Positions 1 to 55,199 of a DNA stretch of 64,000 nucleotides are shown here, one piece after another. The position numbers and the translations under genes were made by a program. How positions within the stretch are numbered: the first letter of the stretch is position 1; every line of letters begins with the position of its first letter. Source of the stretch: Escherichia coli (lineage in GTDB: Bacteria; Pseudomonadota; Gammaproteobacteria; Enterobacterales; Enterobacteriaceae); NCBI RefSeq assembly GCF_036507355.1, contig NZ_AP027877.1; one strand, given 5' to 3'. Below the pieces are notes generated by a model. It did no database searches and was not told the origin of the DNA. It saw nothing but the letters and a program-made list of their open reading frames with translations.

Positions 1-888
1 GGTGAAGAAGCGATTGTGCTGGCGCTGAAAACGCCGAGAAATAGTGATGAGCGGATATGGCTGGGTGATTACGGTAGTCCACTGCGCGACAACGCGTTGA
101 TGCTCTCCTTGCTGGAAGAAAATAAACTGCTACCCGATGAGCAGAACACTTTGCTGAACACGCTTTCGCAGCAGGCATTTGGTGAACGCTGGCTATCGAC
201 CCAGGAAAGTAACGCGTTGTTCCTGGCTGCCCGTACGATTCAGGATTTACCCGGTAAATGGCAGGCGCAAACCTCTTTCTCAGCTGAGCCGCTGACAGGC
301 GAGAAAGCGCAAAACAGTAATCTGAATAGCGATCAACTTGCTACCTTGCAGGTGACCAACAGTGGCGATCAGCCGTTATGGCTGCGTGTGGATGCCAGCG
401 GTTATCCGCAATCCGCACCTTTACCGGCGAACAATGTGCTGCAAATCGAGCGTCATATTCTTGGTACTGATGGTAAGAGCAAATCGCTGGACTCGTTACG
501 TAGCGGCGATCTGGTGCTGGTCTGGTTGCAGGTAAAAGCCAGTAACAGCGTGCCGGACGCGTTAGTCGTGGATCTGCTGCCTGCGGGTCTGGAACTGGAA
601 AACCAGAATCTGGCGAACGGTAGCGCCAGCCTGGAGCAAAGTGGTGGCGAAGTGCAGAACTTACTGAACCAGATGCAGCAGGCGAGTATTAAGCACATTG
701 AGTTCCGTGACGATCGCTTTGTGGCGGCGGTTGCCGTTGATGAATACCAACCGGTAACGCTGGTGTATCTGGCGCGGGCGGTGACGCCGGGAACGTATCA
801 GGTACCGCAACCGATGGTGGAATCAATGTATGTTCCCCAATGGCGGGCGACCGGCGCGGCTGAAGATTTGCTGATTGTCAGACCGTAA
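1..888 (+). CDS. yfhM: alpha-2-macroglobulin family protein YfhM, C-terminal part (5' end lies outside window)
   Basis: Open frame from position 1 (ORF track 16..888); stop TAA abuts pbpC ATG (TAAATG); conserved yfhM-pbpC pairing. Confidence 0.8.
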   Translation, partial: GEEAIVLALKTPRNSDERIWLGDYGSPLRDNALMLSLLEENKLLPDEQNTLLNTLSQQAFGERWLSTQESNALFLAARTIQDLPGKWQAQTSFSAEPLTGEKAQNSNLNSDQLATLQVTNSGDQPLWLRVDASGYPQSAPLPANNVLQIERHILGTDGKSKSLDSLRSGDLVLVWLQVKASNSVPDALVVDLLPAGLELENQNLANGSASLEQSGGEVQNLLNQMQQASIKHIEFRDDRFVAAVAVDEYQPVTLVYLARAVTPGTYQVPQPMVESMYVPQWRATGAAEDLLIVRP

Positions 889-3201
889 ATGCCTCGCTTG
901 TTAACCAAACGCGGCTGCTGGATAACGCTGGCAGCTGCGCCATTTCTCCTTTTTCTTGCAGCGTGGGGAGCAGATAAACTCTGGCCTCTACCGCTGCATG
1001 AAGTCAATCCCGCACGAGTGGTCGTGGCGCAGGATGGTACGCCGCTCTGGCGCTTCGCCGATGCTGACGGCATCTGGCGTTATCCGGTAACAATCGAAGA
1101 TGTTTCTCCACGTTACCTTGAAGCGCTGATCAATTATGAAGATCGCTGGTTCTGGAAGCATCCGGGGGTGAATCCATTCTCGGTGGCGCGCGCAGCATGG
1201 CAAGATCTCACTTCGGGACGGGTTATTTCCGGTGGCAGCACGCTCACTATGCAGGTTGCTCGTCTGCTTGATCCTCACCCCAAAACATTTGGCGGCAAAA
1301 TTCGCCAGCTCTGGCGCGCGTTGCAACTGGAATGGCATCTGTCTAAGCGTGAAATTCTGACCTTGTATCTTAACCGCGCTCCGTTTGGCGGTACGTTGCA
1401 GGGGATCGGTGCGGCAAGTTGGGCTTATCTCGGAAAGTCGCCTGCGAATTTAAGCTATTCCGAGGCGGCAATGCTGGCGGTTTTGCCGCAAGCGCCCAGC
1501 CGTCTTCGCCCGGATCGTTGGCCGGAGCGTGCCGAAGCCGCGCGTAATAAAGTGCTCGAACGGATGGCCGTGCAAGGTGTGTGGTCCCGTGAGCAGGTAA
1601 AAGAGTCAAGGGAAGAACCCATCTGGCTGGCACCCCGACAAATGCCGCAACTGGCACCGCTGTTTTCGCGCATGATGCTCGGTAAAAGCAAAAGCGACAA
1701 AATCGTTACTACGCTGGATGCCGGTCTTCAACGACGTCTGGAAGAACTGGCGCAAAACTGGAAAGGACGTTTACCACCGCGCAGCTCACTGGCGATGATC
1801 GTGGTTGATCATACCGATATGCGTGTTCGCGGCTGGGTGGGATCGGTAGATCTCAACGATGATTCACGCTTTGGTCATGTTGATATGGTCAATGCGATCC
1901 GATCGCCAGGGTCGGTTCTCAAACCGTTTGTTTACGGTCTGGCGCTGGATGAAGGCTTGATCCATCCGGCATCGCTGTTGCAAGACGTCCCCCGGCGCAC
2001 CGGTGATTATCGACCAGGTAACTTTGATAGCGGTTTTCATGGCCCGATCAGCATGAGCGAGGCGCTGGTGCGCTCGCTGAATTTACCTGCTGTGCAGGTG
2101 CTGGAAGCCTATGGACCGAAACGGTTTGCGGCAAAATTACGCAATGTTGGATTGCCGTTGTATCTGCCCAACGGCGCTGCGCCCAATCTTTCGCTCATTC
2201 TCGGCGGTGCTGGTGCAAAACTGGAAGATATGGCGGCAGCGTATACCGCGTTTGCTCGCCACGGCAAGGCAGGCAAATTGCGCTTACAGCCTGACGATCC
2301 GCTGCTTGAACGGCCTTTAATGTCGTCGGGGGCTGCGTGGATCATTCGCCGGATTATGGCTGATGAAGCGCAACCCTTGCCGGATGGTGCCTTGCCGCGC
2401 GTCGCTCCACTGGCATGGAAAACGGGCACCAGCTATGGCTATCGTGACGCTTGGGCGATTGGGGTTAACGCTCGTTATGTCATTGGGATCTGGACTGGCA
2501 GACCGGACGGCACGCCCGTTGTTGGTCAGTTTGGTTTTGCCAGCGCCGTACCATTGTTGAATCAGGTCAATAATATCTTACTGTCGCGCAGTGCTAATCT
2601 GCCGGAAGACCCGCGCCCGAACTCAGTCACTCGTGGCGTTATCTGCTGGCCGGGCGGACAGTCTTTGCCGGAAGGTGACGGTAACTGTCGCCGCCGCCTG
2701 GCAACCTGGCTGCTGGACGGGAGTCAGCCGCCAACTCTATTACTGCCGGAGCAGGAAGGCATTAATGGCATTCGTTTCCCCATCTGGCTGGATGAAAATG
2801 GCAAACGTGTTGCCGCTGATTGCCCGCAAGCGCGACAAGAAATGATAAATGTCTGGCCGCTACCGCTGGAACCCTGGTTGCCCGCATCAGAACGTCGCGC
2901 TGTGCGCTTACCACCGGCCTCGACAATTTGCCCGCCATACGGTCACGATGCCCAGCTCCCGCTGCAGCTGACAGGCGTTCGCGATGGCGAGATTATTAAA
3001 CGTTTACCGGGCGCAGCGGAAGCGACTTTGCCGTTGCAATCAAGTGGAGGGGCAGGTGAACGCTGGTGGTTTCTGAATGGCGAACCGTTAACTGAACGCG
3101 GGCGCAACGTGACCCTGCATTTGACGGATAAAGGTGATTATCAATTGCTGGTGATGGATGACGTAGGGCAAATCGCGACAGTGAAATTTGTCATGCAATA
3201 G
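889..3201 (+). CDS. pbpC: penicillin-binding protein 1C (peptidoglycan glycosyltransferase/transpeptidase)
   Basis: 770 aa ORF; N-terminal TM segment, transglycosylase-like N-domain, PBP transpeptidase motifs; synteny with yfhM and ndk. Confidence 0.9.
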   Translation: MPRLLTKRGCWITLAAAPFLLFLAAWGADKLWPLPLHEVNPARVVVAQDGTPLWRFADADGIWRYPVTIEDVSPRYLEALINYEDRWFWKHPGVNPFSVARAAWQDLTSGRVISGGSTLTMQVARLLDPHPKTFGGKIRQLWRALQLEWHLSKREILTLYLNRAPFGGTLQGIGAASWAYLGKSPANLSYSEAAMLAVLPQAPSRLRPDRWPERAEAARNKVLERMAVQGVWSREQVKESREEPIWLAPRQMPQLAPLFSRMMLGKSKSDKIVTTLDAGLQRRLEELAQNWKGRLPPRSSLAMIVVDHTDMRVRGWVGSVDLNDDSRFGHVDMVNAIRSPGSVLKPFVYGLALDEGLIHPASLLQDVPRRTGDYRPGNFDSGFHGPISMSEALVRSLNLPAVQVLEAYGPKRFAAKLRNVGLPLYLPNGAAPNLSLILGGAGAKLEDMAAAYTAFARHGKAGKLRLQPDDPLLERPLMSSGAAWIIRRIMADEAQPLPDGALPRVAPLAWKTGTSYGYRDAWAIGVNARYVIGIWTGRPDGTPVVGQFGFASAVPLLNQVNNILLSRSANLPEDPRPNSVTRGVICWPGGQSLPEGDGNCRRRLATWLLDGSQPPTLLLPEQEGINGIRFPIWLDENGKRVAADCPQARQEMINVWPLPLEPWLPASERRAVRLPPASTICPPYGHDAQLPLQLTGVRDGEIIKRLPGAAEATLPLQSSGGAGERWWFLNGEPLTERGRNVTLHLTDKGDYQLLVMDDVGQIATVKFVMQ

Positions 3202-3349
3202 TCTGTTTTGTCCCTGATTGTTGCTTAAACTAGGTTTATTTTAAAAAAATGTTACCTTCATCAATAGTCAACGGCTCTGTTGCTCATTATAATCCGCGCC
3301 ATCTCGTACGCTGGTACAGACAACAACAGAACAATTTACAGAGGTAAAA

Positions 3350-5369: not shown

Positions 5370-6383
5370 ATGAATACTGAAGCCACGCACGACCAAAATG
5401 AAGCACTTACTACCGGCGCTCGCCTGCGTAATGCTCGCGAACAACTAGGACTTAGTCAGCAGGCCGTTGCCGAGCGACTTTGCCTGAAGGTTTCCACGGT
5501 ACGCGACATTGAAGAAGATAAGGCACCCGCCGATCTTGCTTCAACATTCCTGCGCGGATATATCCGCTCTTATGCGCGTCTGGTACATATTCCAGAAGAA
5601 GAACTGCTGCCAGGGCTGGAAAAGCAGGCTCCACTACGGGCTGCAAAAGTTGCGCCGATGCAGAGTTTTTCCCTCGGTAAACGCCGCAAAAAACGCGACG
5701 GCTGGCTGATGACCTTCACCTGGCTGGTGTTGTTTGTGGTTATCGGCCTGAGCGGTGCCTGGTGGTGGCAAGACCACAAAGCTCAGCAGGAAGAGATCAC
5801 CACTATGGCCGATCAATCTTCGGCGGAACTGAGCAGTAATAGCGAGCAGGGGCAGAGTGTTCCGTTAAATACGTCGACAACTACAGACCCGGCTACAACG
5901 TCCACGCCGCCAGCGTCTGTGGATACTACCGCAACCAACACGCAAACACCTGCCGTAACTGCGCCAGCACCAGCTGTTGATCCGCAACAGAATGCGGTTG
6001 TTTCGCCTTCGCAGGCAAATGTTGATACCGCCGCGACCCCGGCACCAACGGCAGCAACAACGCCAGATGGTGCTGCGCCGTTGCCAACCGATCAGGCTGG
6101 CGTGACCACGCCGGTGGCTGATCCGAATGCGCTGGTGATGAACTTTACTGCCGATTGCTGGCTGGAGGTCACTGATGCTACCGGTAAAAAATTGTTTAGC
6201 GGTATGCAGCGTAAAGACGGTAATTTGAACTTAACCGGCCAGGCACCGTACAAACTGAAAATTGGTGCGCCAGCCGCAGTACAGATCCAGTATCAAGGGA
6301 AACCTGTCGATCTGAGTCGTTTTATCAGAACTAACCAGGTTGCGCGTCTGACCCTCAATGCCGAACAATCACCGGCGCAGTAA
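5370..6383 (+). CDS. rodZ: cytoskeleton protein RodZ (HTH, single TM, Pro/Thr/Ala-rich linker)
   Basis: 337 aa; N-terminal HTH ([21 protein letters not shown]), TM helix, low-complexity P/T/A linker. Confidence 0.9.
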
Positions 6384-6409
6384 CAGACGGGTAACGCGGG
6401 AGATTTTTC

Positions 6410-7528
6410 ATGCATAACCAGGCTCCAATTCAACGTAGAAAATCAACACGTATTTACGTTGGGAATGTGCCGATTGGCGATGGTGCTCCCATCGCCGTAC
6501 AGTCCATGACCAATACGCGTACGACAGATGTCGAAGCAACGGTCAATCAAATCAAGGCGCTGGAACGCGTTGGCGCTGATATCGTCCGTGTCTCCGTACC
6601 GACGATGGACGCGGCAGAAGCGTTCAAACTCATCAAACAGCAGGTTAACGTGCCGCTGGTGGCTGACATCCACTTCGACTATCGCATTGCGCTGAAAGTA
6701 GCGGAATACGGCGTCGATTGTCTGCGTATTAACCCTGGCAATATCGGTAATGAAGAGCGTATTCGCATGGTGGTTGACTGTGCGCGCGATAAAAACATTC
6801 CGATCCGTATTGGCGTTAACGCCGGATCGCTGGAAAAAGATCTGCAAGAAAAGTATGGCGAACCGACGCCGCAGGCGTTGCTGGAATCCGCCATGCGCCA
6901 TGTTGATCATCTCGATCGCCTGAACTTCGATCAGTTCAAAGTCAGCGTGAAAGCGTCTGACGTCTTCCTCGCTGTTGAGTCTTATCGTTTGCTGGCAAAA
7001 CAAATCGATCAGCCGTTGCATCTGGGGATCACCGAAGCCGGTGGTGCGCGCAGCGGGGCAGTAAAATCCGCCATTGGTTTAGGTCTGCTGCTGTCTGAAG
7101 GCATCGGCGACACGCTGCGCGTATCACTGGCGGCCGATCCGGTCGAAGAGATCAAAGTCGGTTTCGATATTTTGAAATCGCTTCGTATCCGTTCGCGAGG
7201 TATCAACTTCATCGCCTGTCCGACCTGTTCGCGTCAGGAGTTTGATGTTATCGGTACGGTTAACGCGCTGGAGCAACGCCTGGAAGATATCATCACTCCG
7301 ATGGACGTTTCGATTATCGGCTGCGTGGTGAATGGCCCAGGTGAGGCGCTGGTTTCTACACTCGGCGTCACCGGCGGCAACAAGAAAAGCGGCCTCTATG
7401 AAGATGGCGTGCGCAAAGACCGTCTGGACAACAACGATATGATCGACCAGCTGGAAGCACGCATTCGTGCGAAAGCCAGTCAGCTGGACGAAGCGCGTCG
7501 AATTGACGTTCAGCAGGTCGAAAAATAA
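6410..7528 (+). CDS. ispG: 4-hydroxy-3-methylbut-2-enyl diphosphate synthase
   Basis: 372 aa; conserved GcpE sequence incl. Cys cluster CPTCSR...GCVVNGPGE. Confidence 0.95.
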
Positions 7529-7529
7529 T

Positions 7530-7620
7530 AACGTGATGGGAAGCGCCTCGCTTCCCGTGTATGATTGAACCCGCATAGCTCCCGAAACATTGAGGGAAGC
7601 GTTGAGGGTTCATTTTTATA
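7530..7620 (+). ncRNA. sroE: candidate 3'UTR-derived small RNA in ispG-hisS spacer (SroE-like)
   Basis: Two hairpins (GGGAAGCG-CCT-CGCTTCCC; GAACCC...GGGTTC + ATTTTTAT) directly after ispG stop; location matches what I recall for SroE; not verified. Confidence 0.45.
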
Positions 7621-7638
7621 TTCAGAAAGAGAATAAAC

Positions 7639-8913
7639 GTGGCAAAAAACATTCAAGCCATTCGCGGCATGAACGATTACCTGCCTGGCGAAACGGCCAT
7701 CTGGCAGCGCATTGAAGGCACACTGAAAAACGTGCTCGGCAGCTACGGTTACAGTGAAATCCGCTTGCCGATTGTAGAGCAGACCCCGCTATTCAAACGT
7801 GCGATTGGTGAAGTCACCGACGTGGTTGAAAAAGAGATGTACACCTTTGAGGATCGCAATGGCGACAGCCTGACTCTGCGCCCTGAAGGGACGGCGGGCT
7901 GTGTACGCGCCGGCATCGAGCATGGTCTTCTGTACAATCAGGAACAGCGTCTGTGGTATATCGGGCCGATGTTCCGTCACGAGCGTCCGCAGAAAGGGCG
8001 TTATCGTCAGTTCCATCAGTTGGGCTGCGAAGTTTTCGGTCTGCAAGGTCCGGATATCGACGCTGAACTGATTATGCTCACTGCCCGCTGGTGGCGCGCG
8101 CTGGGTATTTCCGAGCACGTAACTCTTGAGCTGAACTCTATCGGTTCGCTGGAAGCACGCGCCAATTACCGCGATGCGCTGGTGGCATTCCTTGAGCAGC
8201 ATAAAGAAAAGCTGGACGAAGACTGCAAACGCCGCATGTACACTAACCCGCTGCGCGTGCTGGATTCAAAAAATCCAGAAGTGCAGGCGCTTCTCAACGA
8301 CGCTCCGGCATTAGGCGATTATCTGGACGAGGAATCTCGTGAGCATTTTGCCGGTCTGTGCAAACTGCTTGAGAACGCGGGGATCGCTTACACCGTAAAC
8401 CAGCGTCTGGTGCGTGGTCTGGATTACTATAACCGTACCGTTTTCGAGTGGGTGACTAACAGTCTCGGCTCCCAGGGCACCGTGTGTGCAGGCGGTCGTT
8501 ATGACGGTCTTGTGGAACAACTGGGCGGTCGTGCAACACCGGCTGTCGGTTTTGCGATGGGCCTCGAACGTCTTGTATTGTTAGTACAGGCCGTTAATCC
8601 GGAATTTAAAGCCGATCCTGTTGTCGATATATACCTGGTGGCTTCAGGTGCTGATACACAATCTGCGGCTATGGCATTAGCTGAGCGTCTGCGTGATGAA
8701 TTACCGGGCGTGAAATTGATGACCAACCACGGCGGCGGCAACTTTAAGAAACAGTTTGCCCGTGCTGATAAATGGGGTGCCCGCGTTGCTGTGGTGCTGG
8801 GTGAGTCTGAAGTGGCTAACGGCACAGCAGTAGTGAAGGATTTGCGCTCTGGTGAGCAAACGGCAGTTGCGCAGGATAGCGTAGCCGCGCATTTGCGCAC
8901 GTTACTGGGTTAA
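7639..8913 (+). CDS. hisS: histidine--tRNA ligase
   Basis: 424 aa; GTG start; class II aaRS motifs. Confidence 0.95.
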
Positions 8914-8930: not shown

Positions 8931-9551
8931 GTGGAAATTTACGAGAACGAAAACGACCAGGTAGAAGCGGTTAAACGCTTTTTTGCTGAAAATGGCAAAG
9001 CACTGGCTGTTGGGGTGATTTTGGGCGTTGGCGCACTAATTGGCTGGCGCTACTGGAACAGCCATCAGGTTGATTCTGCACGCTCCGCTTCTCTTGCCTA
9101 TCAAAATGCGGTTACCGCAGTGAGCGAAGGCAAACCGGATAGCATCCCGGCGGCGGAAAAATTTGCTGCTGAAAATAAAAATACTTATGGTGCGCTGGCT
9201 TCTTTGGAACTTGCGCAGCAATTTGTTGACAAAAATGAACTAGAGAAAGCTGCCGCCCAGTTACAACAGGGGCTGGCAGACACGAGCGATGAAAATCTCA
9301 AAGCCGTGATAAATCTGCGTCTTGCTCGCGTTCAGGTACAGCTCAAGCAGGCTGATGCCGCGCTGAAAACCCTTGATACCATCAAAGGTGAAGGGTGGGC
9401 TGCCATTGTTGCCGACCTGCGTGGTGAAGCATTGCTGAGCAAAGGTGATAAGCAAGGTGCGCGTAGTGCATGGGAAGCAGGCGTGAAAAGCGATGTTACT
9501 CCGGCACTGAGCGAAATGATGCAGATGAAAATTAATAATTTGTCCATCTGA
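8931..9551 (+). CDS. yfgM: ancillary SecYEG translocon subunit / TPR-like membrane protein YfgM
   Basis: 206 aa; GTG start; N-terminal TM then TPR-like helices; synteny hisS-yfgM-bamB. Confidence 0.85.
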   Translation: MEIYENENDQVEAVKRFFAENGKALAVGVILGVGALIGWRYWNSHQVDSARSASLAYQNAVTAVSEGKPDSIPAAEKFAAENKNTYGALASLELAQQFVDKNELEKAAAQLQQGLADTSDENLKAVINLRLARVQVQLKQADAALKTLDTIKGEGWAAIVADLRGEALLSKGDKQGARSAWEAGVKSDVTPALSEMMQMKINNLSI

Positions 9552-31154: not shown

Positions 31155-31792
31155 TTACTCGTCGGCAGCGTAGCCCTGCGGCGGCAGACGTTGACCATCC
31201 AGCCACGCGGCGTTTTCGTGCATTTTCAGACGACCATCGGCAAACCAGCTAATCACCAGTGGATAAATGGCGTGTTCCTGGGTTTGCACGCGGGCGGTGA
31301 CGTCATCTTCCGTATCACCAGCAAATACCGGGACTTTCGCCTGTAAAATAACCGGGCCACCGTCCAGTTCATCGGTGACGAAATGCACCGATGTACCGTG
31401 CTCTTCATCGCCATTTTCCAGCGCCTGACGATGGGTGTGTAATCCGGGATATTTCGGCAGCAGAGAAGGGTGAATGTTCAGCAAACGCCCGGCATAGTGG
31501 GAGACAAACGCCGGGCTGAGAATGCGCATAAAACCAGCCAGCACGACCACATCGGGTGCGTACATGTCGATTTCATGAATCAACTCCCGGTCATAGGCTT
31601 CACGACTGTCAAACGCGCTGGCGATGAGCGTATGCGTTGCAATACCCGCCTGGCGGGCGCGTTCAAGGCCGAACGCGTCGGCCTTATTGCTGAAAACTGC
31701 CCGTACGGTGCCTTTAATTTTGTTGGTTTTACAGGCGTCAATAATTGCCTGCAAATTACTTCCGTTGCCGGAAATAAGCACCACAATATTCA

Positions 31793-31793
<1 letters not shown>
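31155..31793 (-). CDS. purN: phosphoribosylglycinamide formyltransferase 1
   Basis: 212 aa; MNIVVLISGNGSNLQAIIDA; start overlaps purM stop (TAATG). Confidence 0.95.
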
Positions 31794-32848
<1,055 letters not shown>

Positions 32849-35163: not shown

Positions 35164-35257
35164 TGTACCGACCGGGCAGTGTTGCTGCCCGGTTCAAACA
35201 TCATGGGATTCTGTGGTAAACTTCTCGCGATTTTGTGAAATCCTGGTTGAGGTATCT

Positions 35258-35959
35258 CTGAACACACCGGCACAGCTCTCTTTGCCACTTTATCTTCCTG
35301 ACGACGAAACCTTTGCAAGTTTCTGGCCGGGGGATAACTCCTCTTTACTGGCCGCGCTGCAAAACGTGCTGCGTCAGGAACATAGCGGTTACATCTATCT
35401 CTGGGCACGCGAAGGCGCGGGGCGCAGCCATCTGCTGCACGCGGCTTGCGCGGAATTGTCGCAGCGTGGCGATGCGGTGGGCTATGTCCCGCTGGATAAA
35501 CGCACCTGGTTTGTTCCGGAAGTGCTCGACGGTATGGAGCATTTGTCGCTGGTCTGTATCGACAACATTGAGTGTATTGCAGGCGATGAGTTGTGGGAGA
35601 TGGCGATTTTCGATCTCTACAATCGAATTCTGGAATCGGGCAAAACACGGTTGTTGATCACCGGCGATCGTCCACCGCGGCAGTTGAATCTGGGATTACC
35701 GGATCTCGCGTCGCGACTCGACTGGGGGCAGATCTACAAATTGCAGCCACTTTCTGATGAAGATAAGTTGCAGGCGCTACAGTTACGCGCGCGTTTGCGT
35801 GGTTTTGAACTGCCGGAAGATGTGGGGCGTTTCTTGCTGAAGCGGCTCGACAGAGAAATGCGCACGCTATTTATGACGTTGGATCAGTTGGATCGTGCGT
35901 CGATTACCGCGCAACGTAAATTGACCATTCCGTTTGTGAAAGAAATTCTGAAGTTGTAG
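35258..35959 (+). CDS. hda: DnaA regulatory inactivator Hda
   Basis: AAA+ protein ending ...[10 protein letters not shown]; start uncertain, CTG at 35258 would give 233 aa, ORF-track ATG 35213 gives 248 aa. Confidence 0.8.
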
Positions 35960-42577: not shown

Positions 42578-43328
42578 GTAACCCCCGGAGAACGCGAAAG
42601 AGTTGCTGAACGATACTATTGAGACGCGGATCGTCGGCTTCGCGCAACCAGGTGTTAACCCGATTTCCTGTAGGATCATCGCTTAAATGGCGCAGGAGCC
42701 GATCGCAAATTTCTCGCCCCTGACGATAGCCCGCCAGCCGCCGCGCTTCTCGCTCAACGGCGATACGCTGTGATGGCGGGATCTGCGGCCACAGCGGTTG
42801 CATGGTCACTCCGGTGGGATCGCGAAAATCCACCGCGTGAATCTTCTGTTGCAGCAAACCGAGCGCCACGGCGAAACCGTGAATGGTGGCAGCCGGTGTT
42901 GGCGGGCAGCCGGGGATCCAAACATCAATGGGGACAATGGTGTCGCTGCCGCCCCAGACGCTGTAGAGATCGTGGAAAATACCGCCGCCGACACCGCACG
43001 CGCCGTAGGAAACACAGATTTTATGATCGGGGGCAGACTCATACGCCCGAAGTGCAGGCATACGCATCGCCCGGGTGACTGCGCCAGTAAATAACAAAAT
43101 ATCGGCGTGACGCGGTGATGAAACAACCTTAATGCCAAAACGTTCTGCGTCGAATACTGGTGTGATGGCGGCAAAAATTTCGATTTCACAGGCGTTGCAG
43201 CCGCCGCAATCGACGCGATAAACGTAGGCTGAGCGACGGATATTCTGTAGCAAATGCCGCTTCATCTTTTGCGTTTGCTCGTCCAGCGTGATGGGCTGGC
43301 TGACATGTTGTGTAAGCACTGGACTCAT
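42570..43328 (-). CDS. hyfI: hydrogenase-4 small subunit (NuoB-like)
   Basis: 252 aa; NuoB-type Fe-S Cys motifs (GCCPG...CGAC...GCPP). Confidence 0.9.
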
Positions 43329-43879: not shown

Positions 43880-45595
43880 TTACTTCAGCGGCGAACGGTT
43901 ACGATCAATGCCGTAGCGTTCGATCTCTTTATACGGCACGGTTTTTGACTGGCGCTTGCGCACATCAACCAGCGTCACACGGTCGGTACAGGAGTAGCAG
44001 GGATCAAGGCTACCGATAATCAGCGGTGCGTCAGAAACGGTATTGCCGCGTAGCATGTAACGCAGCACCGGCCAGTTGGCGTAGGTGGCGGCACGACAGC
44101 GCCAGCGGAACAATTTTTGGTTATCACCGAGCATGCTCCAGTGCACGTCTTCACCGCGTGGCGCTTCAACAAAGCCGAGCGCGAATGCGTGAGGTTTATA
44201 GCTAAAGCCTTCGGTCAGCAGTGGGGTGTCCGGCATGTTGTCGAGGGCAAATTCCAGCATTGCCAGCGAATCAAACGTCTCTTTGACACGGACCATCACG
44301 CGGGAGAAGACATCGCCGCCGGTAAAGGTAAACAGTGTTTTGGGAATATTGCCGTAGTCGGCGTAGGGGTGATCAAAGCGCAAATCACGGGCAAAACCAC
44401 TGCCGCGGATCAGCGGCCCTACAGGGCTATATTCACGGGCGATTTGTCGGTCGAGAATGCCAATGCCCTGAGTGCGTTGTTCCATATTCGGCGTAGCAAG
44501 CAGCATCTCTACCAGCTCCGACACGTCGGCGCGCATCTCGCGCACCAGTTTCAGCGTTTGCAGACGTTGCTCTTTGAGAATATCGCGGCGAACACCACCA
44601 ATCAGATTCAGACCGTAGGTTTTACGCGACCCGGTCAGCAATTCCGCCATCGTCATCGACTTTTCCCGCACGCGGAAAAATTGCATAAAGCCGGTATCAA
44701 AACCAACAAAATGGCAGGAGAGGCCAAGGTTGAGCAAATGACTGTGTAGCCGTTCGACTTCCAGCAGAATCGAGCGAATGGTATGCGCTCGTTGCGGCAC
44801 CTCAATCCCCAGTGCATTTTCAACCGAGTTGGTATAGGCCACACTGTGGGCAAAACCGCAAATCCCACACACGCGGTCCGATAAGAAGGTCACTTCGTTG
44901 TAGCCCATCCGCGTTTCTGCCAGTTTCTCCATGCCGCGATGGACATAAAACAGGCGGTAATCAGCATCGACAATTTGCTCGCCATCCACAAACAAGCGGA
45001 AGTGACCCGGTTCATCGGAGGTGATATGCAGCGGGCCGACAGGGATCACCTGCGCATCGCTGTTGCCCTCATTGATAAACGGATACGTTTCGGAATCAGT
45101 CGTCGGTTCAGGGCGCAGTCGATAATCCATCGCGTCTTTGCGCAGCGGATGCATATCTTCCGGCCAGTCATCGGGCAACACCAGGCGACGCTGATCCGGC
45201 AGGCCAACCGGAATCAGCCCGTACATATCGCGAATTTCTCGCTCGCCCCAGACCGCGGCAGGGACGCGCGGTGTGACTGACGGAAACTCCCGACTGTCGG
45301 CATCGACCAGTGTCTTCACCACGATCCAGCATTTTTCGGCCCCTTCCATAGAAAGGGCATAATAAACGGCGTAATGACCGTTAAGTGTCCGCTCGTCGTT
45401 GCCAAACAGGACCGGAAGCCAGCCATCATGTTGATAATAAAGATAATGTACAACGTCAGGCAGCAGATTGATTTTCACCGTAATGGTGACCTGTTCAGGC
45501 GTTTGTCGCTCTTCATCCAGCACCGCGCCGGGGAACTGCGTTTTCAGGGCGGCGAGAATCGCTTCGCCACGATTTGACGATGAATTAACGTTCAC
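43880..45595 (-). CDS. hyfG: hydrogenase-4 large subunit ([NiFe] catalytic, NuoC/NuoD-like fusion)
   Basis: Ni-binding [10 protein letters not shown] and C-terminal DPCYSCTDR motifs; start uncertain (GTG 45595 with GGAG RBS, or other in-frame starts up to 45640). Confidence 0.85.
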
Positions 45596-50244: not shown

Positions 50245-52263
50245 TTAGACGGCAATAGCGATTAGCAGCACAACCAGTGCGGCGACCACATACAGGCAAT
50301 AGAGACGAAAGTCGCCGCTTTGCAGATGCTGTATTTCTTTGGCCAGCCGTTGGGTGGCGCTCACGATGGGGCGGATCACCCGCTCATCCCAGAAGGGTTC
50401 TGTGCTCTGAGCCCTGGCGGTGACGTGCGCAAGACCTTTATTTAGCCTCAGCGTAGGGTCGAGCTGTTGTCGTAGACGAAATAGCGCAGAGAAGACCACA
50501 CGCAGCGGCTGCATCACGCCATTGCCTGACGGGGCCATCGCATTTTCCCAGCCGTAGCCGCATGCCCAGGCATCTCCTGTGCGACGAAACGCTGCGCGGC
50601 GCGAACGACACCACAGCCAGTAAAGGCCAGGCAGCAAAGGCATCGCCAGTAGTAACAGCAACAGTAATGAGGGGGTGACCTGTGTATGAAACGTGCCGGG
50701 TACAAGTGCTATTCCGCTGGCGACAGTGACGGGAGGGGTATTGGTAAACGCATGGGCAATATGCATTATCTTCGGTGCCAGCCAACTGGCACTAAGCGCA
50801 ATTAATACGCAGAGTGCCGCGAGCAGTAGCATGGCGACGATCATCGTATTTGGCACTTCCTGTGCCTCTTCAGCGTGTGTACTGCGCGGCGCACCACAGA
50901 AAGTAATACCGTACATTTTTACGAAGCACATTACTGCCAGCCCACCAGTGACTGCCAGCATTACCATAGCAATAGGACCCGCAAGTTGTAGCGCTACGGC
51001 TTCCACACGACTTAGTGAGAACAGCGACTGCCAGGTGTACCATTCGCTGATAAAACCATTCAGCGGAGGAATGGCTGATATCGCGAGGCAACCAATCAGG
51101 CATGCTGCGGCTGTCCACGGCATCCGTTTCGCCAGTGCCCCCATTTTTTCCATGTCGTGGGTATGCAAACGCGAAATAATCGCGCCCGCGCCGAGAAATA
51201 GCAGCCCTTTGAACAGCGCATGGTTGAGCAGATGAAACAGTGCGCCGAGCAGTCCAACCACGGTGAGCAGCGGGTCGTGCAGTGACAGACCGACCATCGC
51301 CACACCGACTGCCAGCAAAATAATGCCGACGTTTTCGACGGTACTCCAGGCCAGCAGCCGTTTGATATCCTGTTCCGCCAGCGCATATAGCACGCCCAGG
51401 AGCGCGGAGATTGCGCCGATCGCCATCACCAGAATGCCCCACCACAGAGGCAAACCCGTTTGCGCCAGCAGATCCATCGCTACTTTCAGGATGCCGAAAA
51501 TACCGATTTTGACCATTACGCCAGACATCAACGCCGAAGCGTGCGATGGTGCGGCAGGGTGAGCGCGCGGCAACCAGCTGTGCAACGGCATCATCCCGGC
51601 TTTCGCGCCAAAACCGAAAAAGGCCAGCAGGAACACCGCCGACGCCAGCCCCGGAGAAAGTGAAAGCGTGCGGAAACTGGCAAAATCGAGGCTGCCGCTT
51701 TCGCGCCTCATCAGCAAGAAGGCGATCATAATCAGCACCGATCCGGCGTGGGCGATAAAAAAGTAGAGCATGCCAGCGTTGATCGACGTTTTATCCTGCC
51801 TGGCAATGACCAGAAACCAGGAAGACAGTGACATCATTTCAAACAGCACGATGAACCAAAAAGTGTTGTCCATCACCAGCAGGGCAACCATCGATGCGAT
51901 GAAAAGATTCATAAAGAAGCCCATCGCCGCCGCGCCTTTGCCCTCGTATTCGCGCATATAAGTCAATGAATAGAGCGAACAAACTACCACTAGCAAGGAG
52001 ATAACCAGCACCATAAATGCCGAGAGGCTATCCATTCGCAGGGTTAAATCGGCAAAGTCAAAAGGGGTGGCAAAACGGGCGACTAAAGTTACGCCTCCAT
52101 GTAATTGCGTAATTCCGCTGATAATGCCAATCACGCCGCCCACCAGCGATGTGATGCCGGAAAGCTTAATAGCCAGTCTGTCCAGACCGAGTAAAAACAG
52201 CGAAGCCAGACTGGCAAACAGATAGAGGATCAGCGACCAGGTTAATAATTGCAGGGCATCCAT
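50245..52263 (-). CDS. hyfB: hydrogenase-4 membrane subunit B (NuoL-like)
   Basis: 672 aa polytopic membrane protein; start overlaps hyfA stop (TAATG). Confidence 0.9.
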   Translation of the reverse strand: MDALQLLTWSLILYLFASLASLFLLGLDRLAIKLSGITSLVGGVIGIISGITQLHGGVTLVARFATPFDFADLTLRMDSLSAFMVLVISLLVVVCSLYSLTYMREYEGKGAAAMGFFMNLFIASMVALLVMDNTFWFIVLFEMMSLSSWFLVIARQDKTSINAGMLYFFIAHAGSVLIMIAFLLMRRESGSLDFASFRTLSLSPGLASAVFLLAFFGFGAKAGMMPLHSWLPRAHPAAPSHASALMSGVMVKIGIFGILKVAMDLLAQTGLPLWWGILVMAIGAISALLGVLYALAEQDIKRLLAWSTVENVGIILLAVGVAMVGLSLHDPLLTVVGLLGALFHLLNHALFKGLLFLGAGAIISRLHTHDMEKMGALAKRMPWTAAACLIGCLAISAIPPLNGFISEWYTWQSLFSLSRVEAVALQLAGPIAMVMLAVTGGLAVMCFVKMYGITFCGAPRSTHAEEAQEVPNTMIVAMLLLAALCVLIALSASWLAPKIMHIAHAFTNTPPVTVASGIALVPGTFHTQVTPSLLLLLLLAMPLLPGLYWLWCRSRRAAFRRTGDAWACGYGWENAMAPSGNGVMQPLRVVFSALFRLRQQLDPTLRLNKGLAHVTARAQSTEPFWDERVIRPIVSATQRLAKEIQHLQSGDFRLYCLYVVAALVVLLIAIAV

Positions 52264-52880
52264 TAGCGTTGCTCCTGAGTGAGGGAAAGGGGATCCTCCC
52301 CGCCATTGGCAAACCAGCTTGCGGCAAGGCGCTGTTTTTCTTTCATCTGACGTTGCAGGCTATCGTCGGTGATCAGCCGTAACGCCTGATTCGGGCAAGC
52401 GCGAACGCAGGCCGGACCTTCTGGCAAGAAATCACACAGGTCGCATTTCACCGCGACGGTCTGGACACCTGGTTCCCAGCGCAGCAAAGCATGTTGTGTT
52501 GGCGCGTTTTCTTCGCCGTCTTTGAGTGAGCCTTCAGCCTGAAAAACATATTGCGCAGGGGCATTCACCGGACGGCTTCCTGAAGCGCTGATTGCGCCAA
52601 ATGGGCAGACCACGGCGCAAAGCTTGCAGCCAATACAGAGGCTTTCGTTGAGTTGGATCGCATCATCCCTCTGGGAGATGGCATTGACCGGGCAGACCTG
52701 CAGGCAAGGGGCTTCCTCACAGTGATGACACACGACAGGGGCAGTGAGTGTTGACGTCTTCGCCAGGGCCAGGCGCGGGTGTTGCTGTAAACCTTGCGTT
52801 TTATGCACGTCCGAACAGGCAGCGAGACAGGTATTACATCCTGTACACCACAGTGGTTCGGCCACCACAAAGCGGTTCAT
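52263..52880 (-). CDS. hyfA: hydrogenase-4 component A (4x[4Fe-4S] ferredoxin)
   Basis: 205 aa from MNRFVVAEPLWCTGCNTCLAAC; AGGAG RBS 6 nt upstream; multiple CxxCxxCxxxCP clusters. Confidence 0.9.
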   Translation of the reverse strand: MNRFVVAEPLWCTGCNTCLAACSDVHKTQGLQQHPRLALAKTSTLTAPVVCHHCEEAPCLQVCPVNAISQRDDAIQLNESLCIGCKLCAVVCPFGAISASGSRPVNAPAQYVFQAEGSLKDGEENAPTQHALLRWEPGVQTVAVKCDLCDFLPEGPACVRACPNQALRLITDDSLQRQMKEKQRLAASWFANGGEDPLSLTQEQR

Positions 52881-52938: not shown

Positions 52939-53132
52939 TCTGATTAATTTAATATATTCAATAAGTTATGAATTAACTGGATTCTGAACGGTACAAAAAT
53001 GATGGTCATTAACGTTCAGCAAAAAATGGATTCGACACCCGTGTCGCAGGGGAACGCGAGAATGTGATCTTGATCACGAGAAGTGAGGTGTGCTGACCAC
53101 AAGCGCAGCCAGCACGGAATGGAGCAAAGTAA

Positions 53133-53603
53133 TCAGGCGTGTTCTTTCAGCCAGTTCAGCACAACGTCGTGGTGATTGCTGGTTTTGAAATCGTCAAAGA
53201 CATGTTCGATTTTGCCATCAGCGTCAATCAGGAAGCTGATGCGATGAATACCATCGTAGGTTTTGCCCATGAAGGACTTTTCCCCCCAGACGCCGAATTG
53301 CTCGCACACCTGGTGGTCCTCATCAGACAGGAGCGTAAAGTTAAGCAGCTCTTTTTCCGCAAAACGGGAGAGTTTTTCGGGTTTATCGGTGCTGATACCC
53401 AGCACATCAACGCCCGCTTTTTTCAACTCATCCATGTTATCGCGTAAGCCGCAGGCCTGTACGGTACAGCCGGGGGTCATGGCTTTCGGGTAGAAATAAA
53501 CCAGAACACGCTGTCCCTGGAAGTCGGTCAAATTAACTTGTTCTCCGTCTTGATCCGGCAAGCTAAATTTCGGTGCGATATCACCGGCTTTCAGTGGATT
53601 CAT
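53133..53603 (-). CDS. bcp: thiol peroxidase Bcp (peroxiredoxin)
   Basis: 156 aa; peroxidatic Cys motif PKAMTPGCT; start overlaps gcvR stop (TAATG). Confidence 0.95.
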   Translation of the reverse strand: MNPLKAGDIAPKFSLPDQDGEQVNLTDFQGQRVLVYFYPKAMTPGCTVQACGLRDNMDELKKAGVDVLGISTDKPEKLSRFAEKELLNFTLLSDEDHQVCEQFGVWGEKSFMGKTYDGIHRISFLIDADGKIEHVFDDFKTSNHHDVVLNWLKEHA

Positions 53604-54176
53604 TACTTAACTCCATCCTGTTCATCATGTTGGGAATAATTGACGACGTTAATACTGCCTTGTGCATTGAGTTCTGTACATAGGGCTTTGAACGCTTGCT
53701 CAATATTTGCTGCGTCCGCAGATGCGGGGCTGTGGGCAGTAATCTGAATATGCAACTGCGCAGCCCGTTCATTTTCAGCAGGTTGCGTGCGCGACACCAG
53801 CTCCGCAATGTTCATATGATGCGTGTCGAAAAGTGCTGTGAAGCGTTCAATTAAATGCGGGGAGTCTGCCACATCGACCTGAACCCAGACAGATGCTGGC
53901 ATTGGCGGACGCGGACGCGCCGTCGTGCGCTTCATCACGATTAAAAGATCCAGTTCGGCACCTTTCAACGGTAACGTTGATTCAATCAGAGTAATGGCAT
54001 TCCATGAACCGGAAAGCAGCATGATAAACGTGAACTCTTCTCCCAGCATCGCCAGGCGACTGTCTTCAATATTACAGCCGCAACTACTGACATGACGGGT
54101 GATGGTGTTCACAATTCCAGGGCGATCGGCACCCAACGCAGTGATCACCAGATAATGTTGCGATGACAGTGTCAAA
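53603..54176 (-). CDS. gcvR: glycine cleavage system transcriptional repressor GcvR
   Basis: about 190 aa if started at TTG 54176 (LTLSSQHYLVITALGADRPGIVN) with AAGGA RBS; ACT-domain protein; ORF-track start 54241 probably too long. Confidence 0.85.
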
Positions 54177-54320
54177 CTGGTTATTCCTTTAAGGGGTGAG
54201 TTGTTCTTAAGGAAAGCATAAAAAAAACATGCATACAACAATCAGAACGGTTCTGTCTGCTTGCTTTTAATGCCATACCAAACGTACCATTGAGACACTT
54301 GTTTGCACAGAGGATGGCCC

Positions 54321-55199
54321 ATGTTCACGGGAAGTATTGTCGCGATTGTTACTCCGATGGATGAAAAAGGTAATGTCTGTCGGGCTAGCTTGAAAAAACT
54401 GATTGATTATCATGTCGCCAGCGGTACTTCGGCGATCGTTTCTGTTGGCACCACTGGCGAGTCCGCTACCTTAAATCATGACGAACATGCTGATGTGGTG
54501 ATGATGACGCTGGAGCTGGCTGACGGGCGCATTCCGGTGATTGCCGGGACCGGTGCTAACGCTACTGCGGAAGCCATTAGCCTGACGCAGCGCTTCAATG
54601 ACAGTGGTATCGTCGGCTGCCTGACGGTAACCCCTTACTACAATCGTCCGTCGCAAGAAGGTTTGTATCAGCATTTCAAAGCCATCGCTGAGCATACTGA
54701 CCTGCCGCAAATTCTGTATAATGTGCCGTCCCGTACTGGCTGCGATCTGCTCCCGGAAACGGTGGGCCGTCTGGCGAAAGTAAAAAATATTATCGGAATC
54801 AAAGAGGCAACAGGGAACTTAACGCGTGTAAACCAGATCAAAGAGCTGGTTTCAGATGATTTTGTTCTGCTGAGCGGCGATGATGCGAGCGCGCTGGACT
54901 TCATGCAATTAGGCGGTCATGGGGTTATTTCCGTTACGGCTAACGTCGCAGCGCGTGATATGGCCCAGATGTGCAAACTGGCAGCAGAAGGGCATTTTGC
55001 CGAGGCACGCGTTATTAATCAGCGTCTGATGCCATTACACAACAAACTATTTGTCGAACCCAATCCAATCCCGGTGAAATGGGCATGTAAGGAACTGGGT
55101 CTTGTGGCGACCGATACGCTGCGCCTGCCAATGACACCAATCACCGACAGTGGTCGTGAGACGGTCAGAGCGGCGCTTAAGCATGCCGGTTTGCTGTAA
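54321..55199 (+). CDS. dapA: 4-hydroxy-tetrahydrodipicolinate synthase
   Basis: 292 aa from [19 protein letters not shown]. Confidence 0.95.

Follow-up and report, generated by a model that had tools for sequence, protein, structure and literature searches.

Non-AUG start codons and stop/start overlaps around gcvR, hda and purM in a conserved segment of the Escherichia coli chromosome

Results

The window analysed here, a single stretch of 64,000 nucleotides, is an Escherichia coli chromosome segment that lies in reverse orientation relative to K-12 2.589-2.652 Mb and runs from the yfhM side to that of ypfM/acrD. A 4-kb query around the gcvR region matched 5,425 of 5,426 complete E. coli genomes (95-100% identity), and 52 CDSs of K-12 MG1655 (2.588-2.656 Mb) could be mapped onto the window at 96-100% identity, the exceptions being yfgJ, which has diverged from K-12 (81%), and xseA, the 3' end of which does not align to K-12. 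Start sites were compared with the curated annotation of K-12 MG1655 (NC_000913.3) and with the NCBI PGAP annotation of the closest strain, which give the same lengths for gcvR, hda, hyfA, hyfC, hyfJ, dapA, bamC, purC and ypfH. An initial annotation, made from the sequence alone, had listed several unusual starts and overlaps in this region; its start assignments all coincide with those of the curated K-12 and PGAP references.

Positions 53600-54180 correspond to gcvR on the minus strand (CDS 53603..54175; 190 codons plus a TAA stop codon at 53605-53603), which codes for the glycine cleavage system transcriptional repressor and corresponds base for base to K-12 b2479. The gene adjoins bcp and is divergent from dapA, a neighbourhood that is the same in K-12 and in 79-80 Enterobacteriaceae loci. 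The TTG start with an AAGGA ribosome-binding site that had been proposed for gcvR is present in the sequence and identical to the K-12 annotation, the start codon lying at 54173..54175 (minus strand) and the Shine-Dalgarno motif, as read from the sequence, at 54185..54189 (minus strand), with a 9-nt spacer between them. The longest open reading frame (ORF) continues for a further 22 in-frame codons (54176..54241, minus strand; non-coding), with upstream TTG codons at 54241 and 54238. When the 212-aa translation of this ORF was aligned to the NCBIfam equivalog model NF008612 (396.8 bits; cut-off 267), positions 1-189 of the 189 in the model matched residues 23-211, so that the model begins at the TTG and the upstream extension is without a family-model match. 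In addition, a promoter survey that lists gcvR as its own unit reports the promoter TTAAAA-18-TCTGAT, and the upstream TTG codons sit directly after its -10 hexamer. Since the promoter ends directly before both of these codons, they would lie at or before the start of transcription.

A scan with one genome per species retrieved 80 Enterobacteriaceae loci (GcvR identity 85-98%), in all of which the codon aligned to GcvR residue 1 is TTG. The same codon is found in the three more distant genera sampled (Yersinia, Erwinia and Dickeya), giving 83/83 Enterobacterales, and all 83 loci retain an AGGAA core approximately 9 nt before the TTG, beyond which the upstream sequence diverges. The best 120 hits of a GcvR protein search were all from the Enterobacterales, and the conservation of the TTG is accordingly a statement about sampling within this order. 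At 29 of the 80 Enterobacteriaceae loci the upstream reading frame is closed by a stop codon (8-12 codons away in the cases listed) before any ATG, GTG or TTG is reached, which leaves the TTG as the sole possible start. No GcvR N-terminal peptide is present in a K-12 N-terminomics table (PMC13245402, Table S1), gcvR has no entry in the other supplements searched (tetracycline ribosome profiling, PMC4909307; INRI-seq), and a literature search on a UUG/TTG start of gcvR found no report. From sequence comparison, gcvR appears to be translated from a weak UUG codon positioned 9 nt past AAGGA, and the 22 upstream codons appear to belong to the promoter and the 5' leader.

The 3' end of gcvR overlaps the start of bcp (CDS 53133..53603, minus strand; thiol peroxidase, 156 aa; K-12 b2480; ATG at 53603-53601) in a TAATG junction at 53601..53605 (minus strand), in which the gcvR stop codon TAA and the bcp start codon ATG share one base. 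This overlap, which had been noted previously, is identical to that of K-12, where the gcvR-bcp pair (b2479-b2480, NC_000913.3) has the same gene order, lengths, TTG start and one-base TAATG; DNA identity is 99.3-99.4%, and the window differs from K-12 by strain-level substitutions only. A GGAG Shine-Dalgarno motif for bcp lies within the 3' end of gcvR (53611..53614, minus strand), 7 nt before the ATG, and ATGGAG is conserved before bcp in the orthologues sampled. The bcp start is flagged as INRI-seq-supported and its N-terminal peptide (MNPLKAGDIAPK...) was detected in the N-terminomics table. Across 79 Enterobacteriaceae loci the gcvR stop and bcp start are joined as TAATG (66), TGATG (3) or ATGA (4), or are separated by a gap of 2-3 nt (6); the spacing is therefore -4 to +3 nt in 79/79 loci, with an exact one-base overlap in 69. 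Elsewhere the spacing is +2 in Yersinia and Dickeya and +3 in Klebsiella, and the 73-nt gap in Erwinia means that the overlap is not conserved order-wide. A simple promoter and terminator scan of positions 53000-54400, which is weak evidence, yielded no more than shuffled sequence would, and within gcvR it detected nothing promoter-like on the minus strand.

A second unusual start codon belongs to hda (CDS 35258..35959, plus strand; 233 aa; K-12 b2496, NP_416991.2). Its CTG start at 35258-35260, previously considered probable, follows a GAGG Shine-Dalgarno motif (35249..35252, plus strand) by 5 nt, and matches both the K-12 annotation and published ribosome profiling. In the tetracycline ribosome-profiling study (PMC4909307, Table S3) a 45-nt shift of hda in the 2014 annotation is recorded together with the manual confirmation '3. 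2014', which according to the legend denotes a signal at the 2014 initiation site. In that re-annotation (NP_416991.2) the former GTG start was replaced by this same CTG, which lies 45 nt downstream of it. There is thus no difference in E. coli, whereas the gene annotated in other Enterobacterales is usually two codons longer, its GTG start overlapping the ribosome-binding motif. We compared the window with DNA of 11 further Enterobacterales lineages, and in 12/12 the sequence GAGGT is followed by four bases, CTG and then AAY, the GAGGT-N4-CTG arrangement being invariant. The GTG two codons upstream, which PGAP takes as the start in the common 235-aa annotation, occurs in 7 of the 12 lineages; at its position there is GTA in E. 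coli and Rouxiella and GTC in Klebsiella, and it is out of frame in Serratia aquatilis. In-frame stops 7 codons (Klebsiella) and 4 codons (Serratia aquatilis) upstream, with no intervening ATG, GTG or TTG, leave the CTG as the sole candidate in these two lineages. As the upstream GTG forms the last three bases of the GAGGTG motif, it lacks a ribosome-binding site of its own at a suitable distance.

Protein collections are divided over the start of Hda. Of 109 cluster representatives, 13 begin at the CTG, 55 include two residues more and 41 extend further, one of the last being a 248-aa E. coli form that represents a cluster of 3,510 sequences. The 235-aa annotation, which is the usual form of Hda outside Escherichia and Klebsiella, is matched by the NCBIfam model NF005982 (235 positions). 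Hda is not in the K-12 N-terminomics table (PMC13245402, Table S1), and a literature search on a CUG/CTG start of hda matched only primers or Caulobacter dnaA. Taken as a whole, the annotation, the profiling signal and the alignment establish that hda starts at CUG, 5 nt after GAGG, and many of the 235-aa annotations outside Escherichia are, judging from the aligned DNA, probably two codons too long, with their GTG placed inside the ribosome-binding site.

Three further genes start at GTG as the initial annotation had read them, and all three are annotated in this way in K-12 and have published N-terminal peptides. These are purM (CDS 31793..32830, minus strand; GTG at 32830-32828, TAA at 31795-31793; K-12 b2499), with N-terminal peptides (10 residues, not shown) and Ribo-RET support, hisS (CDS 7639..8913, plus strand; GTG at 7639; K-12 b2514), with the peptides MAKNIQAIR and AKNIQAIR and both Ribo-RET and INRI-seq support, and yfgM (CDS 8931..9551, plus strand; GTG at 8931; K-12 b2513), with the peptide MEIYENENDQVEAVKR and again Ribo-RET and INRI-seq support. 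GTG starts of hyfG, yfgG and yfgH had not been listed. The overlap of purM with purN (CDS 31155..31793, minus strand; K-12 b2500; ATG at 31793-31791) is likewise a TAATG junction (31791..31795, minus strand), as had been described and as in K-12. The purM GTG and its upstream GGGGA are kept in Yersinia, Erwinia, Hafnia and Dickeya, and the junction itself is TGATG (-1) in Dickeya and ATGA (-4) in Erwinia; purM and purN are separated by 12 nt in Hafnia and by 239 nt in Yersinia. A third TAATG junction, absent from the earlier list, joins the hyfA stop to the hyfB start (52261..52265, minus strand), and the hyfH stop and hyfI start overlap as ATGA (43325..43328, minus strand).

For all nine genes whose longest ORF had been said to overshoot the likely true start, the overshoot relative to the annotated start was found: der (13 codons), guaB (23), upp (9), hyfJ (34), hyfA (13), hyfC (7), dapA (6), purC (3) and ypfH (8). 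Overshoots not previously listed are those of gcvR (22 codons), hda (15), hyfG (15), purM (5), ppk (2), bamC (1) and hyfR (1). For most of the genes discussed here the protein N-terminus or an initiating-ribosome signal is established. A 2026 E. coli K-12 N-terminomics study (PMC13245402, Table S1) reports peptides at the annotated starts of purC, dapA, bcp, upp, der, purM, yfgM and hisS, and those of der, upp, dapA, purC and purM begin at the annotated rather than the longest-ORF start, an outcome that agrees with the earlier reading. That table holds no GuaB, YpfH or Hyf proteins, the INRI-seq supplements have no entries for hda, guaB and ypfH, and the text of a retapamulin ribosome-profiling preprint does not mention these genes.

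In alignments of the longest-ORF translations with full-length NCBIfam equivalog models, none of the upstream extensions was covered by a family model. Position 1 of the model falls on the annotated start for YpfH (residue 9 of the longest ORF) and HyfA (residue 14), whereas the Der, HyfJ and GuaB models begin just inside the annotated start (2-7 residues). For Der, position 1 lies at residue 16, which is annotated residue 3; for HyfJ, position 2 lies at residue 39, annotated residue 5 (model begin approximately 4); and for GuaB, position 1 lies at residue 31, annotated residue 8, with another model extrapolating to approximately 1. The models of PurM, HyfC and HyfG start at residues too distant from the N-terminus to separate nearby candidate starts. 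Orthologue alignment supports the starts of gcvR, dapA, purC, hyfA, purM and hda. The codon at the K-12 start is ATG in the orthologues of dapA (78/78), bamC (76/76), purC (73/73), bcp (79/79), hyfA (11/11) and hyfB (11/11), and subsets of the loci are without any possible upstream start. Support is weakest for the starts of hyfC (annotation and a Shine-Dalgarno motif), guaB (annotation and family models) and gcvR; those of hyfJ, hyfA and ypfH are supported by annotation, family models or motifs.

The genes of the window start with ATG (42), GTG (6), TTG (1) and CTG (1), or 84%, 12%, 2% and 2%, compared to 81.8% ATG, 13.8% GTG and 4.35% TTG in well-annotated bacterial genomes. Six of the 36 same-direction gene pairs overlap (17%; three by 1 nt and one each by 4, 8 and 11 nt), compared to approximately 15% in most prokaryote groups. 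We also considered whether overlaps or non-ATG starts are enriched in the window, and rejected this, as the counts match the background. An overshoot, defined as an in-frame ATG, GTG or TTG before the first upstream stop, was found for 16/50 genes, whereas 25.0 ± 3.2 were expected from shuffled upstream sequence and the other two real frames gave 23 and 22; overshoot is thus rarer than chance in the window.

Discussion

Our analysis indicates, with little doubt in our view, that the unusual start codons and overlaps of this region are normal and already annotated translation signals of a conserved segment of the E. coli chromosome. The features are already known from the K-12 reference annotation and their mechanisms are textbook; what is mildly new is limited to the hda CUG, which is conserved across the order and bears on how Hda is annotated elsewhere. 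As with other near-cognate start codons (GUG, UUG and the rare CUG), the starts of gcvR and hda differ from AUG by one base and follow a Shine-Dalgarno motif. Few annotated bacterial starts are CUG, whereas the CUG of hda is found throughout the lineages compared. The overshoots of the longest ORFs probably reflect NTG codons that by chance are in frame within upstream DNA that is not translated.

If the longest ORFs were instead the true genes (GcvR of 212 aa from the TTG at 54241, Hda of 248 aa from the GTG at 35213), the curated shorter starts would be wrong. Upstream in-frame NTG codons do exist, and public automated calls use upstream starts, as in the 3,510-member cluster of 248-aa Hda and the clusters of 212-aa Salmonella GcvR, but orthologous extensions are broken by in-frame stops at 29 gcvR loci and, for hda, in Klebsiella and Serratia, the family models skip the extensions, and the gcvR extension and the gcvR promoter overlap. 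The peptides of Der, Upp, DapA, PurC and PurM, which begin at the annotated starts, and the tetracycline ribosome-profiling signal at the hda CTG point the same way. This explanation, already largely refuted by the orthologue stops, peptides and profiling, can in our opinion hardly be correct. It is somewhat less improbable, though still very unlikely, that some genes have two starts and yield two isoforms, from the hda CTG and an upstream codon or, in Citrobacter species, from the gcvR TTG and an in-frame ATG 11 codons upstream. Two initiation sites have been reported for 28 E. coli genes (Nakahigashi et al.), and a GTG precedes the hda CTG by two codons in more than half of the lineages compared. 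Conservation is, however, not seen for the upstream codons, nor are they preceded by a Shine-Dalgarno motif at a suitable distance (the hda GTG is part of GAGGTG), and for the detected proteins no second N-terminus is reported except for loss of the initiator methionine.

The overlaps are open to two interpretations. At the UAAUG junctions (gcvR/bcp, purM/purN and hyfA/hyfB) the downstream AUG is placed on the upstream stop codon, so that a terminating ribosome could reinitiate while still on the mRNA (termination-reinitiation coupling). Independent initiation would be possible as well, each downstream gene having a Shine-Dalgarno motif of its own within the upstream gene. The junctions resemble the short overlaps (ATGA/TGATG) studied by Huber et al. 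(2019), which share the same direction, an overlap of 1 or 4 nt and a Shine-Dalgarno motif in the upstream gene; four of the five native E. coli overlapping pairs tested there were coupled, including hyfHI, a pair that lies in the window, and one, bioBF, was initiated independently (Huber et al., 2019). Coupling was measured for those pairs, whereas at gcvR/bcp, purM/purN and hyfA/hyfB it would be a prediction from sequence; the products of gcvR and bcp, moreover, are not subunits of one complex. By analogy we infer that coupling may operate at gcvR/bcp and purM/purN. It is nonetheless quite conceivable, although we lean away from it, that the overlaps represent compaction with no functional coupling, bcp and purN being initiated independently at their own Shine-Dalgarno motifs and possibly transcribed from internal promoters. 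The well-spaced GGAG of bcp, its INRI-seq-flagged start, the loss of overlap in Erwinia (gcvR-bcp) and Yersinia (purM-purN) and the independent initiation of bioBF all favour compaction, whereas the narrow spacing of gcvR and bcp throughout the 79 Enterobacteriaceae loci, the coupling of the four other tested pairs and, as weak evidence, the absence of minus-strand promoter-like sites within gcvR in our simple scan count against it. An N-terminal peptide was found for Bcp and none for GcvR, so the translation of bcp is unlikely to depend solely on that of gcvR. Coupling cannot be the whole story for bcp, which has its own conserved GGAG 7 nt upstream and an INRI-seq-supported start.

Near-cognate codons such as UUG and CUG are known to initiate translation weakly, and the strictness with which they are kept in these two low-abundance regulators suggests that low expression has been selected for. 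The weak UUG codon may keep the level of the GcvR regulator low, and both weak codons may have been selected to limit expression. Whether the UUG of gcvR (83 genomes) and the CUG of hda (12 lineages, with GAGG fixed) are held by selection, with the 235-aa Hda calls too long and the CUG order-wide, is in our estimation an evenly balanced proposition.

The initial annotation had also warned that automated longest-ORF calls would be wrong here. The warning is correct and holds for Prodigal-type public calls, but is trivial for modern pipelines, as PGAP places these starts correctly. Calls of the longest-ORF or Prodigal type are frequently wrong for hda and gcvR in public protein collections; among 115 GcvR cluster representatives, the start is placed at the TTG in 81 and too far upstream in 34, the 212-aa Salmonella forms among them. 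The use of the present comparison is therefore as an annotation check, and the two-codon-longer annotation of Hda in other Enterobacterales deserves re-examination. The biological consequence is otherwise small, with gene boundaries already correctly annotated and the features occurring at background frequency. If selection does maintain the UUG and CUG codons, gcvR and hda would be two more regulators that are kept low through the choice of start codon.

Translation starts in the Enterobacterales

Hda is annotated at 235 aa in most of the Enterobacterales proteins from outside Escherichia (protein clusters P0006-P0115; orthologous loci L085 and L087-L092), and the NCBIfam model for Hda (NF005982) likewise has 235 positions. 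This common annotation begins at a GTG that itself forms the last three bases of the ribosome-binding motif GAGGTG, and the invariant CTG two codons downstream of the annotated GTG is the more likely start of hda.

An in-frame ATG precedes the gcvR TTG by 11 codons in Citrobacter and a number of genera related to it (L008-L024 and further Citrobacter loci), with no stop codon between this ATG and the conserved TTG, and these organisms may produce a longer GcvR isoform. A separate observation concerns P0149, a 331-aa 'hypothetical protein' assigned to the fungus Astraeus odoratus, which carries both a GcvR (ACT) and a Bcp (AhpC-TSA) domain and shares 89% identity with E. coli GcvR. Enterobacterial contamination is its most probable source, with gcvR and bcp having been fused across their overlap by a eukaryotic gene caller.

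Across the window, an in-frame ATG, GTG or TTG before the first upstream stop was found in 16 of 50 genes, compared to 25.0 ± 3.2 in shuffled upstream sequence, and is thus depleted; the other two frames of the same upstream regions gave 23 and 22 genes with an upstream start. This depletion hints either at mild selection against spurious in-frame upstream starts or at stop-rich leaders.

Differences from K-12 and the closest strain

When the genes of K-12 (MG1655) were mapped onto the window, approximately 5 kb of the der-xseA interval (12331-17723) had no K-12 counterpart. It contains an ORF of 726 aa with an inverse-autotransporter beta-domain (12818-14998), an ORF for which Pfam gave no match (15054-16019) and an ORF of 460 aa starting at TTG with InvE adhesion and BIg21 domains (16191-17573). 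Together, the three ORFs resemble an adhesin locus of the intimin/invasin type, which is possibly split. The 3' end of xseA departs from the K-12 sequence, and yfgJ shares only 81% identity with K-12.

In strain 99-3311 (L003; locus 5801-8099 and 13584-15165), the closest complete genome, an ISEc20 transposase interrupts focB and hyfF is annotated as frameshifted, whereas both genes are intact in the window. In hyfE the window has one base fewer than K-12 at about 47206 (GGCACGCTGG to GGCAGCTGG), which causes a frameshift close to the 3' end of the gene, such that 3 residues stand in place of the last 12 and the product is 207 aa rather than 216; the deletion could be true strain variation or a sequencing error. 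The window's hyfG is longer than that of K-12 by 48 bases (16 codons; 44393-44440), an insert bordered by the short repeat GCCCGTGA / GCGCGTGA, and this long form (1716 nt) is also present in strain 99-3311. Among 5,426 complete E. coli genomes, a 96-nt probe spanning the insert was covered over at least 80% of its length in 2,179 and matched in part in a further 2,111, so both the long and the short hyfG alleles seem to be common in E. coli.
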